From a plasmid: a stretch of DNA of 64,000 bases. Position 1 is the first letter of the stretch; each line of letters begins with the position of its first letter. Location of the stretch: the NCBI RefSeq assembly GCF_988243305.1, contig NZ_OZ547138.1; one strand, 5' to 3'. Positions 36,001 to 42,000 of this stretch are shown here, piece after piece. A program made the position numbers.

Positions 36001-39000
36001 GTATCCGGGAAACACGCCGCTGATGCTGCTTATCTGGTCCCCGGAAGAGATTCAGGCCCTCGCTGACGGAATGGATATTTCTCTGTCCGATCATGAAATC
36101 AGAACCGTCCTGGCGCGCCTGGAGGACATCCCGGAAGACCAGCGGACTGAATCCGGTATTTCTTCCGGTGCGGCGATGGAGATTATCAATAACGTGAGAG
36201 AAAACCGCCAGGTGACCGTCCCTGCTGAACTGCTGGCGTCCCTGATTCAGACCGCCGAACAGGCACTGTGGAAACGTGAGTGGGCCGCCCGTGATAACGG
36301 CCTCGCCGTCCCGGAATGCGTCACCCGCCGACAGGCGGTGGTTAATCAGGCCCGCGCCCTGCTGAAAAACAACACACGCGAAAACGACTGATGTTATCGC
36401 CGCCTGCGGGCGGCGATTCAGGGAGACCATGAATCATGAACGAAACGCTGAATGCACTGATTTATCGCCACGCCAGCAACCTGCTGCTGGCGCAGGGCTG
36501 GCCGGAAGAGACGGATGTTGACCAGCGTAATCCGAAGTATCCGGGCTGGATCAGCATTTACGTGCGGCTGGATGTGCCCCGGCTGGCGACGTTACTTATC
36601 AACCGTCACGGCGGCGTACTGCCGCCGCTCCTGGCCTCCGCCATTCAGAAACTGACCGGAACCGGGGCGGAACTGGTACTGTCCGGCAGTCAGTGGCAGT
36701 CGCTGCCGGTACTTCCGGCAGACGGAACACAGGTGTTTTTCCCGTATGCCGGAGAATGGCTGACCGAAGACGAAATCAGGGCAGTTCTTGATGCAGTGCG
36801 CAATGCAGTACGAAGCATCTGTTACCAAGTGGCAGAAGATGCCCGGCGTATCCGGGCGGCGCTGACCACCACCGGTCAGACGTTGCTGACCCGCCAGACG
36901 CGCCGCTTTCGTCTGGTTGTGAAGGAAAGCGATTACCCCTGCTGGCTTGATGAAGATGACGAAAATCTGCCCGTGGTGCTCGATGCCATTCTGAACCGTG
37001 GCGCTCGTTTTTCGTCGGTGGAAATGTATCTGGTCAGTGAGTGTGTGGAGCATATCCTGTCCAGTGGGCTGGCCTGCGATGTGCTGCGTATACCTGATGA
37101 ACCGTCCCGTCGCTGGTTTGACCGGGATATTCTGCGGGAGGTGGTCCTGGAAGCCCGGACTGAAATCCGCAGCATGGCGGATGCACTGGCGAAAATCCGG
37201 AAATGATGACGCTGGCGGGGAAAATCTCCGCCTTTTCCAGCCGGTCCCCGGAAAGAGCAAAAGGATGTCGCCGCAGGCTCCGCTTTACCCGGCCATGCGG
37301 GGCATGGCCTTGTGGGTTTTCAGTTATGTGGCCTCAGCGTCGTGTGCGGGCTGTGCCGTGCCTCCATCGTAGCCGGGCTTCTGCGGGCGGGTTGCAAGGT
37401 AAGGTGAACCGCTGCGGTCACCCGGTCCCTCCTTCCCGTCTGCCGTGATTTTCCGGTCGTTCACCCGCTCAGATTTCGCGGTCTCACCCTCCAACTCCCG
37501 TCAGCCGTGCGCGTCAGGCTGCGGCTTCCCTTGCGCCCTTGCAACCCTGCAGGTCCGGCAAAGATGGAGGCACGGCACCGCCCGGTGTCGCGGAATATGT
37601 GAACAACGGAGGAAATCCCATGCAGTATGCGAAACCTGTCACTCTGAACGTTGAAGAGTGCGACCGTCTGTCTTTTCTGCCTTACCTGTTTGGCCTGGAT
37701 TTTCTGTATGCCGAAGCGTCTGTATACGCGCTGGCGAAAAAAATGATGCCGGAATATGAAGGCGGATTCTGGCACTTCATCCGCCTGCCGGACGGTGGCG
37801 GTTACATGATGCCGGATGGCGACCGTTTTCATCTGGTCAACGGTGAAAACTGGTTTGACCGTACCGTGAGTGCTGATGCCGCAGGCATCATTTTGACTTC
37901 CCTTGTGATTAACCGCCAGTTGTGGCTGTACCACGACAGCGGGGATGCAGGGTTGACACACCTGTACAGGATGCGCGATGCGCAGTTGTGGAGCCACATC
38001 GAATTTCACCCCGAATGCAACGCGATTTACGCGGCACTTGACTGATTAACGGACGGGGCGGCAATGCCGCCCCTGTAAAGGAGACGAGAACATGTACTGT
38101 ACTGTTAAAGAAATCATCCGCGATGTACTGGATACAGACGTGCCGGACAGTGAATGCGTTTTTGCCGTGGTGCTGACCCGTGGGGATGTGCGTCACATAG
38201 CCCAGGACTGGAACCTGTCAGACGATGAGCTGGAAACCGTCATGCAGCGACTGGACGATGCCTTTGAGCATGGTGCGGATGTCAGCGTTGTTCACGACGT
38301 TGTTCGTGAACTGATGGAAGAAAAGCGCGCCAGCCGTCATGTGACAGTCCCGGCGGTGATGCTGGAAAAAGTGATGGCGCTGGCAGGCAGTGAAATGAAG
38401 CGCCTGTATGCCGTCGGGAGTGAGAACGGGGGCGACGGTGACGCATTCGTCAGGGAGGAACGCGAAGCAATGGACGTTGTGTTACAGGCGCTGGACGGGG
38501 AGACGATGTCATGAATATCAGCACAGAAACCCGCGAAATTCTGCGTAATTACAGGGCCGTGATTAATGCGCGGCGTCGTGAAATGGGGCAGAAACCGCTC
38601 ACCACCGCGCAGATTGTTGATGAAATCTGCGATTTTGTGGCGAATCAGCAGGCGGTTTTCCTGGGCGGTCACTACATCCTTCAGGGCAGCAGAAACAGGT
38701 GATACAGGGGCAGGCGGTGGAGGCCGCCTGTCAGCCCGCGCGAAAACCCCAGGCAGGCTGACGCCTGCCGGAAACGCGGGGTGCAGCGCCTGCGGCGCTG
38801 CCGGCCCGGCTTTCCGGTCAGAAGGTAGTGTATGGCTGTATGCAGGGAACAGGAGTGATATTCCGTGACACTGTCACCGTTTCTGGCTGTCTTTTATTGC
38901 GCCCACTTCGGCTCCCGGCTGCCTGGCGGCATCCGGTCGTCAGGCCCGACTCCGACGGGCAGCTGCTGGCGCACCCGCCAGTCTCCGCCGAACCCGCTGG

Positions 39001-42000
39001 CGCGGTTTCGGGCTGCCGCTACGGTCCGATGCGTGAAAACCCGGCTTGCAGCGACCGTTCCGGTCGCGCCGCCCCTGTCGCGCCGTGACCTGCGCTCCCT
39101 GCACACCTGACGGTGTGTGAGGAAACTGCGCCTGATGGCGCAGCAGTCCTCCCTCCTGCCGCCACTCCTGCGGCCTGTTTCCCGCTGTGGACTTTCCGGG
39201 GGGCAGACGTAACCCCCTCCCGTTCCATCTGTCCAGGGTGAGATGCACCGGCCACAAAATTTTTAGCCATGAACCCGGCAAAAAATTTTGCGTCCGCCCC
39301 CGGACAGCTGCCCCGTGAGGCGGTAAACGGGCCCCCATCGGAAAGGTCCACTGCGGGGAGAAAACCCTGTGAAGTGGACGGCAGGAGGAGCTTTCGCTCC
39401 TCTGAAGGGGCACATGAACGTCCCGTCGCCGGTATCCGGTTTATCTCACATCTTTCAGTCAGGAGGTTCTTATGAGTGCACGTGGTATCAACAAGGTCAT
39501 CCTCGTCGGGCGTCTGGGCAATGATCCGGAGGTCCGTTACATCCCCAACGGGGGCGCAGTGGCAAACCTGCAGGTGGCCACGTCAGAAAGCTGGCGCGAC
39601 AAACAGACGGGGGAGATGCGGGAGCAGACGGAATGGCACCGCGTGGTGCTGTTCGGCAAGCTCGCGGAAGTGGCAGGTGAATATCTGCGCAAGGGCGCGC
39701 AGGTCTACATCGAGGGGCAACTCCGTACCCGTAGCTGGGAAGATAACGGTATCACCCGTTACGTCACTGAAATTCTTGTTAAGACCACGGGCACCATGCA
39801 GATGCTGGGGAGTGCACCACAGCAGAACGCTCAGGCGCAACCGAAGCCTCAGCAGTACGGCCAGCCACAGAGTGCTGACGCAACGAAAAAAGGGAGCGCG
39901 AAAACGAAAGGCCGTGGACGTAAGGCTGCGCAGCCGGAGCCTCAGCCGCAACCGCCGGAGGGTGAGGATTACTGGTTTTCAGACGATATCCCGTTCTGAA
40001 TGACTGACTGTGAAAACCGCCCCGTCCAGTGCGGGGCATCACCGGAGATATGAGGATGAGCGAATATTTCAGAATATTTCAGGGGCTGCCTGACGGCTCC
40101 TTTACCCGCGAACAGGCTGAAGCCGTTGCCGCACAGTACCGGAATGTCTTTATCGAGGATGATCAGGGAACGCATTTTCGCCTGGTTGTCCGCAATAACA
40201 GTGGCCTGGTCTGGCGTACCTGGAATTTTGAGGACGGTGCCGGGTACTGGATGAACCATGTCATCCGGAATTTCGGCATTCTTAAGTAAGAGAGGTGCCG
40301 GACGCGCGAACGTCCGGCAGGACATAAGCAATTATAAGGGGATGATTATGCCTGTAACGAAGTGTGAACCAGAAACCACCCGCAAAGCAAGCCGTAAATC
40401 TGTAAAAACGCAGGAAACTGTCCTGTCTGCCCTGCTGGCGCAGACGGAGGAAGTGAGCGTGCCGCTGGCCTCGCTGATTAAATCACCGCTGAATGTGCGC
40501 ACGGTGCCGTATTCTGCGGAGTCCGTCAGCGAACTGGCGGAGTCCATTAAGGGCGTTGGCCTGTTGCAGAATCTGGTCGTGCATACCCTGCCTGGTGACC
40601 GTTACGGTGTCGCCGCAGGTGGTCGCCGACTGGCTGCACTCAACATGCTGGCAGAGCGTGGCATTATTCCGGCTGACTGGCCTGTACGCGTGAAGGTTAT
40701 TCCGCAGGAGCTGGCGACTGCCGCATCAATGACTGAAAACGGTCATCGTCGGGATATGCACCCTGCCGAACAGATTGCCGGATTCCGTGCGATGGCGCAG
40801 GAAGGCAAAACGCCTGCACAAATCGGTGATTTGCTGGGCTATTCGCCCCGCCACGTTCAGCGAATGCTGAAACTGGCAGACCTTGCGCCTGTCATCCTCG
40901 ATGCGCTGGCAGAAGACCGCATCACCACAGAGCACTGTCAGGCGCTGGCGCTGGAGAACGACACCGCGCGTCAGGTGCAGGTGTTTGAAGCCGCCTGCCA
41001 GTCGGGATGGGGCGGTAAACCGGAAGTACAGACCATTCGTCGTCTGGTGACCGAAAGTGAAGTGGCGGTGGCGGGGAACAGTAAATTCCGCTTTGTGGGG
41101 GCTGATGCCTTCTCGCCAGATGAACTGCGCACTGATTTGTTCAGCGACGACGAGGGTGGCTATGTGGACTGTGTTGCGCTCGATGCCGCCCTGCTGGAAA
41201 AACTCCAGGCTGTTGCAGAGTTCCTTCGGGAAGCCGAAGGCTGGGGATGGTGCGCCGGACGCATGGAGCCTGTCGGTGAGTGCCGTGAGGATGCCGGAAC
41301 ATACCGCTGTCTGCCGGAGCCGGAAGCGGTGCTGACGGAGGCGGAAGAAGAACGCCTGAACGAACTGATGACGCGTTACGACGCGCTGGAAAACCAGTGT
41401 GAGGAATCCGACCTGCTGGAAGCAGAAATGAAGCTGATTGACTGCATGGCGAAGGTCAGGGCGTGGACGCCGGAGATGCGTGCCGGAAGTGGCGTGGTGG
41501 TGTCCTGGCGTTATGGAAACGTATGTGTCCAGCGTGGTGTGCAGTTGCGCAGTGAAGATGACGCGACTGATGACGCTGACCGCACGGAACAGGTGCAGGA
41601 GAAAGCGTCAGTGGAGGAAATCAGTCTGCCGTTGCTGACGAAAATGTCTTCCGAACGCACGCTGGCAGTCCAGGCAGCACTGATGCAGCAACCGGACAAA
41701 TCCCTGACACTGCTGGCATGGACGCTCTGCCTGAATGTGTTTGACAGCGGAGCGTACAGTAAACCAGCACAAATCAGCCTGGAATGTAAACATTATTCGC
41801 TGACCAGCGATGCGCCGTCAGGGAAGGAAGGTGCCGCATTCCTGGCGCTGATGGCAGAAAAAGCCCGTCTTGCGGCCCTGTTACCGGAGGGATGGTCACG
41901 GGACATGACGACGTTCCTGTCACTCAGTCAGGAGGTGCTGTTATCCCTGCTCAGTTTCTGCACCGCATGCAGCCTTAACGGTGTCCAGACCCGCGAGTGT

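Follow-up and report, generated by a model that had tools for sequence, protein, structure and literature searches.

Resistance plasmids of the IncI and IncF groups use the ssi/Frpo elements, whose role is established and still actively studied, to express ssb, genes for anti-restriction and genes for SOS inhibition within minutes after entry into the recipient, before the second strand is made. The Frpo stem-loop in single-stranded DNA (ssDNA) presents -35 and -10 boxes, and Escherichia coli RNA polymerase uses Frpo for both transcription and priming; Frpo-type ssi elements depend on RNA polymerase (review, PMC7690428). In the F plasmid, Frpo1 and Frpo2 are needed in vivo for the genes downstream of them to be expressed early (Couturier et al. 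2023, PMC9849209). In pESBL-EA11 (pESBL), ssi1-3 are class 1 ssDNA promoters with the highest output, and their start sites were determined by 5' rapid amplification of cDNA ends (5' RACE). The genes downstream of them are induced up to ~500-fold, and the induction is prolonged in uvrD recipients (Wen et al., Nucleic Acids Research 2025, PMC12672017). In the same study ssi1-3 and Frpo form class 1, and hairpins upstream of klcA and ardA form class 2 (PMC12672017). Here, we analyzed a stretch of 64,000 nucleotides (nt) of plasmid DNA (NCBI RefSeq assembly GCF_988243305.1, contig NZ_OZ547138.1; hereafter the window), and found that three repeats in it are very probably the class 1 ssDNA promoters ssi1, ssi2 and ssi3 of the Frpo family in an IncI1-type conjugative plasmid. 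They are thus real and already known elements. The ssi1-3 elements of ColIb-P9, another relative used for comparison, were reportedly described by Bates et al. in 1999 and by Nasim et al. in 2004.

A sequence-only reading of this DNA had claimed a second repeat family in three copies, with two dyads and a 3' block kept in each. We examined the copies by a repeat search over 36-52 kb and a three-way alignment, and both bore out the claim. Three direct copies lie in one orientation (+) at 38906-39428 (copy 1), 45251-45772 (copy 2) and ~48279-48650 (copy 3). Copies 1 and 2 align over ~505-520 nt, while copy 3 has only the right-hand ~330-370 nt of the 505-nt unit. Copy 3, which had been called partial, is therefore partial relative to that unit, but as an element it is a complete ssi. 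In pairwise comparison of the 330-nt core, identity is 82% for copies 1 and 2, 77% for copies 1 and 3, and 83% for copies 2 and 3, and the GC content of the copies is 62-67%, compared with 53% in the window. Three motifs, CACACCTGACGGTGTG (starting at 39102, 45448 and 48306), CTGCGCCTGATGGCGCAG (39126, 45472 and 48330) and GGAAAGGTCCACTGCGGGGA (39340-39359, 45684-45703 and 48545-48564), occur exactly three times each in the 64-kb window, on the + strand, once per copy and in identical order.

To identify the copies, we compared the window's minus strand by alignment with five reference Frpo/ssi sequences (Supplementary file 4 of PMC11541004). This is the comparison with ColIb-P9 ssi and F Frpo that the sequence-only reading had proposed, and it identified the copies as ssi3, a variant of ssi2, and ssi1. 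Copy 1 (39075-39405, minus strand), upstream of ssb, is an ssi3-type class 1 ssDNA promoter, with 98.5% identity to ColIb-P9 ssi3 (AJ238399:11381-11711) across all 331 nt. Copy 3 (48279-48607, minus strand), upstream of a DUF4942 gene, is of the ssi1 type, with 98.2% identity to ColIb-P9 ssi1 (AJ238399:1459-1787) across all 329 nt. Copy 2 (45421-45748, minus strand), between ardA and a hypothetical gene of 144 amino acids, is a mosaic ssi2-type class 1 element. Its nearest relative among the ColIb-P9 elements is ssi2 (AJ238399:4353-4678), with an identity of 90% in the local alignment, or 87% with gaps included. In the comparison with pESBL, copies 1 and 3 are both ~99% identical to the pESBL elements (98.8% for copy 1 and its counterpart), and copy 2 is 86% identical to pESBL ssi2 over the core, differing in the middle of the hairpin. 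The similarity of the copies to F ssiD (Frpo) is 78-83% and is confined to the apical 88-144 nt. In a sample of PLSDB, full-length copies were found in ~2000 plasmids, and the apical part in thousands more IncF plasmids. The identity with ssi/Frpo supports the earlier interpretation of the repeats as early single-strand promoters. Sequence identity, position, orientation, hairpin and covariation were computed here, and ssDNA-specific activity and start sites come from the literature. We assign the same mechanism because of the 98-99% identity of copies 1 and 3 and the preserved, compensated hairpin of copy 2.

The position and orientation of the copies also agree with the published systems. 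Over the query region there is 100% identity with plasmid NZ_CP145695.1 (typed IncI-gamma/K1, MOBP, MPF_I), and the sole Rfam 15 match in the window is the IncI replication-control pseudoknot PK-repZ at 11030-11180. On the + strand, the genes run in the order DNA methylase, klcA-like anti-restriction gene, DUF1380 gene, hypothetical gene and copy 1; then ssb, DUF905 gene, ParB-like gene, psiB, psiA, hypothetical gene, ardA and copy 2; and then a series from a hypothetical gene to an Rpn-family gene, followed by copy 3, the DUF4942 gene, the origin of transfer (oriT), nikA and nikB. This leading-region gene order is that of pESBL-EA11. All copies are intergenic in the leading region and lie directly upstream of co-oriented + strand genes. 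According to the open reading frame (ORF) list and the NZ_CP145695.1 annotation, the first genes past copies 1, 2 and 3 are ssb (39472-39999, +), the 144-amino-acid hypothetical gene (45801-46235, +) and the DUF4942 gene (48657-49505, +), respectively.

On the minus strand upstream of nikA, we found an inverted repeat, GGAATGTC...GACATTCC, followed by an oriT nick-region-like motif, (CAC)ATCCTG|T, which reads CACATCCTG|T at 50065-50071. This motif fits the MOBP nick-region consensus. Since the nick-like motif is on the minus strand, the minus strand is taken as the transferred strand (T-strand), and the lower coordinates as the leading region. The sequence would thus make the minus strand the one that enters 5' end first and the template for all + strand leading genes. 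The distances to the nick-like motif (~50064) are 1.5 kb for copy 3, 4.3 kb for copy 2 and 10.7 kb for copy 1. Copy 3 lies 1457-1785 nt from the motif, matching the coordinates 1459-1787 of ssi1 in the ColIb-P9 record. The window shares with ColIb-P9 the same ssi elements, their order, the neighboring genes and near-equal nick distances. It differs in that its ssi3 is ~720 nt closer to the nick, and in that copy 2 is a patchwork with two novel arm segments. With pESBL-EA11 it shares the plasmid group, the leading region of six operons, and, in copies 1 and 3, ~99% identity to elements mapped by 5' RACE (PMC12672017). A difference from pESBL is in the hairpin of copy 2, which departs from that of pESBL ssi2.

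We then folded the minus strand of each 330-nt element as ssDNA and calculated z scores against dinucleotide shuffles. Each element formed one imperfect hairpin of ~230 nt with small flanking hairpins. The fold energies were -105.5 kcal/mol for copy 1 (z -10.0), -108.7 kcal/mol for copy 2 (z -10.2) and -98.8 kcal/mol for copy 3 (z -8.0), so that copy 2 has the most stable hairpin of the three despite its divergence from ssi2. By fold and consensus structure, the main hairpin of copies 1, 2 and 3 spans 39155-39385, 45501-45729 and 48361-48589, respectively (minus strand). A scan of 300-nt windows over 30-52 kb, as in PMC12672017, where the threshold is below -75 kcal/mol, placed the three lowest-energy peaks at the three copies (-100, -100 and -86 kcal/mol), which agrees with the class 1 threshold. 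Further scan windows reaching -75 kcal/mol lay over the GC-rich blocks that immediately precede copies 1 and 2 on their upstream side, and at 34675-35049 and 44250-44549.

The sequence-only reading had described nested hairpins formed by the dyads CACACC-TGAC-GGTGTG and CTGCGCC-TGAT-GGCGCAG. Both dyads are exact in all copies (39102-39143, 45448-45489 and 48306-48347, + strand), but they are not nested: they form adjacent, tandem side hairpins outside the main stem, on its T-strand 3' side. The dominant hairpin of ~230 nt, which fills the rest of each copy, had been missed. The invariant 3' block GGAAAGGTCCACTGCGGGGA (39340-39359 in copy 1, + strand) is the lower stem of this main hairpin, where it pairs with CCCCGGAAAGTCC (columns 55-74 and 205-222 of alignment A5).

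Covariation had been proposed as a check on the structure, and the alignment revealed compensatory changes that support the main hairpin. Among 13 IncI copies, 99.3% of the cells were paired and 9 pairs were changed on both sides. With the partners slid, pairing fell to ~45% with 0-2 doubly changed pairs, and the observed IncI pairing values were reached by 0-3 of 500 shuffles. A cross-family alignment of IncI, F Frpo1/2, IncFII, Serratia and insect-metagenome sequences gave 13 compensated pairs out of 33 in the central part, with 93.9% of the cells paired, a result reached by no shuffle. Among the features that recur across families, the apical stem is AT-rich (except in two insect-metagenome variants), and an internal loop lies ~20 nt further down the stem from a CCTGGAC helix. 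The two small dyads hardly vary among the 13 IncI copies, which leaves covariation silent on them either way; the IncF Frpo-type elements compared lack both. F Frpo1 (ssiD) and Frpo2 resemble the copies in the long imperfect T-strand hairpin, the AT-rich apical stem, a CAT(C/T)T bulge, and the CCTGGAC helix with its mismatch; in addition, Frpo2 lies upstream of ssb, as does copy 1. This common architecture, like the covariation, reaches beyond the apical part in which the F sequence aligns. The F elements differ in the sequence of the lower stem and in lacking the CACACC.. and CTGCGCC.. dyads.

These data bear on the possibility that a mobile element, either a remnant of an insertion sequence (IS) or a miniature inverted-repeat transposable element (MITE), spread within the plasmid and left the copies as its fragments. 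In favor of this, the copies are dispersed repeats of 330-500 nt with inverted repeats inside them. However, the copies have a single orientation to oriT and occupy syntenic sites in the window, in pESBL and in two further IncI-type plasmids, and the element is present in thousands of plasmids. Among 2773 matching places in 5426 complete E. coli genomes, 2615 were on plasmids and 158 were chromosomal, and the two chromosomal matches inspected were 32-nt spacers of clustered regularly interspaced short palindromic repeats (CRISPR), not copies of the element. Moreover, no transposase is annotated adjoining the copies, the covariation keeps one long hairpin and not terminal inverted repeats, and the repeat search of 36-52 kb found no inverted-repeat pair of at least 40 nt. 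We therefore rejected the IS/MITE identity, which is extremely improbable for elements that are mostly plasmid-borne and, in the plasmids compared in detail, stand at fixed syntenic sites, in one orientation, with a conserved long hairpin. The two outcomes that would have spoken against the sequence-only reading, IS/MITE fragments or a lack of conserved structure, were both looked for, and neither was found.

The fold of the + sense strand was also considered, since the copies might instead act at the RNA level, as a regulator in the 5' untranslated region (UTR), a terminator, or an insulator between operons. The + sense RNA of the upstream part folds well too (z -4.3), part of the element is necessarily in the 5' UTR if the start site is inside the hairpin, and a 169-nt block next to copies 1 and 2 (see below) is present only where a co-directional operon ends upstream. 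Nevertheless, the minus strand is more stable than the plus strand by ~16 kcal/mol in all three copies, because 5-8 G-T pairs of the minus strand turn into C-A mismatches in the + sense. None of the three copies matched an Rfam 15 family at the gathering threshold, and no intrinsic-terminator pattern was found on the + strand of the three intergenic regions. The published ssDNA-specific activity (PMC9849209, PMC12672017) explains the data, and we consider a role in RNA in place of ssDNA very unlikely.

Taking the copies as ssDNA promoters, the following mechanism would apply. In conjugation, transfer would start at the nick near 50064 and bring the window's minus strand into the recipient with its 5' end leading, so that copy 3 would arrive first, followed by copy 2 and copy 1, and ~230 nt of each would fold into the long imperfect hairpin. 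To the sigma-70 RNA polymerase of the host, the hairpin would present a promoter that resembles a duplex in which bases are locally unpaired. With the transferred strand for a template, the polymerase would move towards higher coordinates and transcribe the leading-region operons downstream while there is as yet no complementary strand. These early operons would be the DUF4942 gene, the operon that follows ardA, and that of ssb, the ParB-like gene, psiB and psiA. Synthesis of the complementary strand would abolish the hairpin and turn the promoters off, which would account for a transient ‘zygotic induction’. The same transcripts may also prime complementary-strand synthesis. The single-strand origins (sso) of rolling-circle plasmids and the hairpin promoters of phage N4 share with this scheme a folded single strand, a start by RNA polymerase, and assistance from SSB (single-stranded DNA-binding protein); however, sso serve for priming only, and in N4 the hairpins are short and the polymerase is the virion RNA polymerase. 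We know of no sequence relationship of sso or N4 hairpins to the copies.

The same evidence could be read with priming as the main function, such that a short hybridised RNA primes DNA polymerase III and gene expression is secondary. The name ‘ssi’ derives from priming assays, in vitro priming from Frpo is summarised in PMC7690428, and the folded structure of the copies would suit either role. In F, a contribution of ssp1/Frpo transcripts to priming was found in vivo, and early conversion near the ssp1/Frpo loci was rifampicin-sensitive, but rifampicin left overall conversion unblocked (bioRxiv 10.64898/2026.01.09.698686). The strong induction of the pESBL genes downstream of ssi1-3 (up to ~500-fold, PMC12672017) also argues against a mainly priming function, as does the location of each copy directly upstream of a co-oriented operon that has no other promoter-like site. 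We regard priming as the main function as possible but somewhat doubtful; it is in any case compatible with the promoter role.

We also examined the copies for promoter boxes, which in this family were reportedly defined by Masai and Arai in 1997 and by Nasim et al. in 2004. A consensus scan of the three intergenic regions found no linear sigma-70 consensus promoter on either strand. Instead, the folds revealed a conserved unpaired bulge, GTGCATCTCA, on the 3' arm of the T-strand hairpin (39239-39248, ~45584-45594 and ~48446-48456, minus strand). In every copy, and likewise in the relatives from F, IncFII and the insect metagenome, the fold leaves this 3'-arm bulge of 8-11 nt unpaired, and the CAT(C/T)T within it is kept across families except in the Serratia element. 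The bulge is a candidate unpaired -10-like element. The best -35-like hexamer is TGGACA (39230-39235, minus strand; TGGACG at 45575-45580 in copy 2 and TGGATA at 48437-48442 in copy 3), which pairs with GTCCGG through a conserved G-T wobble. Its assignment as the -35 box is our inference.

The hexamer overlaps a helix, CCTGGAC/GTCC(G/T)GGG, that is invariant across families; in copy 1, 39232-39238 pairs with 39297-39303. At one position of this helix, eight sequences (those of IncI, F ssiD, Serratia and the insect metagenome) have G-T, while F Frpo2 and the IncFII element have T-T; a Watson-Crick pair occurs there in none of the compared sequences. Thus, the mismatch itself appears to be conserved. 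The geometry requires the T-strand 3' arm as the non-template strand, read from loop to base. Two placements of the boxes on this arm are possible: TGGAC(A) may serve as the -35 box, with the -10 box lying in the internal loop downstream of it; alternatively, T(A/G)CATC in the unpaired bulge may act as a pre-melted -10 box.

Some points weigh against the identification of the copies as active class 1 promoters. Both box placements remain on the 3' arm, and neither has a good match to TATAAT. By analogy, the activity proposed for this particular plasmid is carried over from published relatives. For copy 2, which differs by 10-13% from the tested ssi2 and is mosaic, the activity would be an extrapolation.

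The composition of copy 2 was resolved by alignment to the three element types. Its gene-proximal base is of the ssi2 type (100% and 96%), its apical stem of the ssi1 type (97%), and its tail of the ssi3 type (96%). It also carries two novel arm segments that are still complementary to each other. This mosaic, judged from sequence, implies gene conversion among the three repeats. Copy 2 is 99.1% identical to ssi2 of pJNE120393-1, indicating an allele common to both plasmids. In the IncK2/Z plasmid NZ_MT725450.1, everything from ssb to ardA is missing, and one hybrid element (9999-10329) is of the ssi2 type on its gene-proximal side and of the ssi3 type on its distal side. From its sequence, this loss looks like a deletion via recombination between ssi3 and ssi2. 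In the IncFIB/IncI-gamma plasmid pJNE120393-1 (NZ_AP027247.1), ssi1 and ssi2 copies are present, and the 765-nt gap upstream of ssb (3277-4042) gave no match to the ssi core. What is mildly new in our data is descriptive: a mosaic ssi2 allele with mutually compensating arm changes, evidence of recombination among the repeats, and a conserved upstream block.

This block, a GC-rich segment of 169 nt (38906-39074, repeated at 45251-45420), is located directly upstream, in the + sense, of copies 1 and 2; copy 3 does not have it. Its two occurrences share 97% identity, and they fall outside the ssi limits given in the literature. We found it at 95% identity or more in at least 5000 plasmids, IncF plasmids included. 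Exceptional conservation of the block was considered and rejected because the flanking backbone is just as similar between IncI and IncFII: the 3.9-kb flank and ssb are also 93-94% identical between the window and an IncFII plasmid. Its ssDNA fold is weakly significant (z -2.2), marginally better than that of the shuffles. In IncFII plasmids, the Frpo-type element that comes first after the klcA operon has the full block in front of it, and the other copies are preceded by its last ~40 nt only. The block occurs only after co-directional class 2 operons (klcA, ardA) that end upstream, and together with the class 2 repeat it brackets both anti-restriction cassettes.

It is conceivable, though we think it unlikely, that the 169-nt block and the IncI-specific invariant dyads form a separate, undescribed functional module. 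Such a module might be an insulator or terminator that stops klcA and ardA transcripts from melting the next class 1 hairpin; it might also be a protein-binding or replication-pausing site on the incoming strand. A hypothetical coding sequence (CDS) annotated in near-identical plasmids (38840-39088, +) overlaps the block. This CDS has no counterpart in copy 2, has another extent in pESBL, and is unannotated in IncFII plasmids. We take it as a probably spurious ORF, in DNA that is GC-rich and does not code for protein. In Klebsiella IncFII plasmids (loci L006, 1733-3400, and L007, 9733-11400), a group II intron (ltrA) lies between the klcA operon and the block, and this insertion is immediately upstream of a Frpo-type element.

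The sequence-only reading had also suggested two classes of early promoter, on the basis of another repeat family in the same region (type A). This was correct and is already published, since the type A repeats lie at the class 2 positions of PMC12672017. Differential timing, the alternative put forward with it, is not supported in any specific form. The two repeats (37284-37583 and 44233-44532) are 97% identical and located upstream of the klcA-like gene and ardA. Their minus-strand hairpins have energies of -86 and -92 kcal/mol. On the 3' arm, TTGCA(A/T) is followed by a 20-nt spacer and TACGAT, and the repeats are homologous to ‘Frpo’ 4' in the supplement of PMC11541004. The type A repeats are the published class 2 ssDNA promoters. 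A further strong minus-strand ssDNA fold (34675-35049, -91 kcal/mol per 300 nt) was observed just upstream of the DNA methylase gene (35039-35722), a position that corresponds to that of the class 3 ssDNA promoter in the literature (M.EcoGIX). The class 2 (ssp2) and class 3 promoters have in common with the three copies the leading region, the strand logic and the hairpin-promoter principle (PMC12672017; bioRxiv 10.64898/2026.01.09.698686), but no sequence similarity. In F, the class 2 element ssp2 is also a replication roadblock, whereas ssp3, tested as its replacement, is not (bioRxiv 10.64898/2026.01.09.698686).

For annotation, the value of these results is that the three intergenic repeats can be labelled ssi3, ssi2-like and ssi1, with the minus strand as the transferred strand. 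Finally, we observed a CRISPR target within ssi3. The segment 39133-39164 is a 100% match to a 32-nt spacer in E. coli chromosomal type I-F CRISPR arrays (locus L008, 601-632), and the repeat of the spacer-bearing array is GTTCACTGCCGTACAGGCAGCTTAGAAA. A 5'-CC protospacer-adjacent motif lies immediately upstream of the spacer match in the plasmid (39131-39132). The CRISPR RNA from this spacer would be complementary to the transferred (minus) strand.

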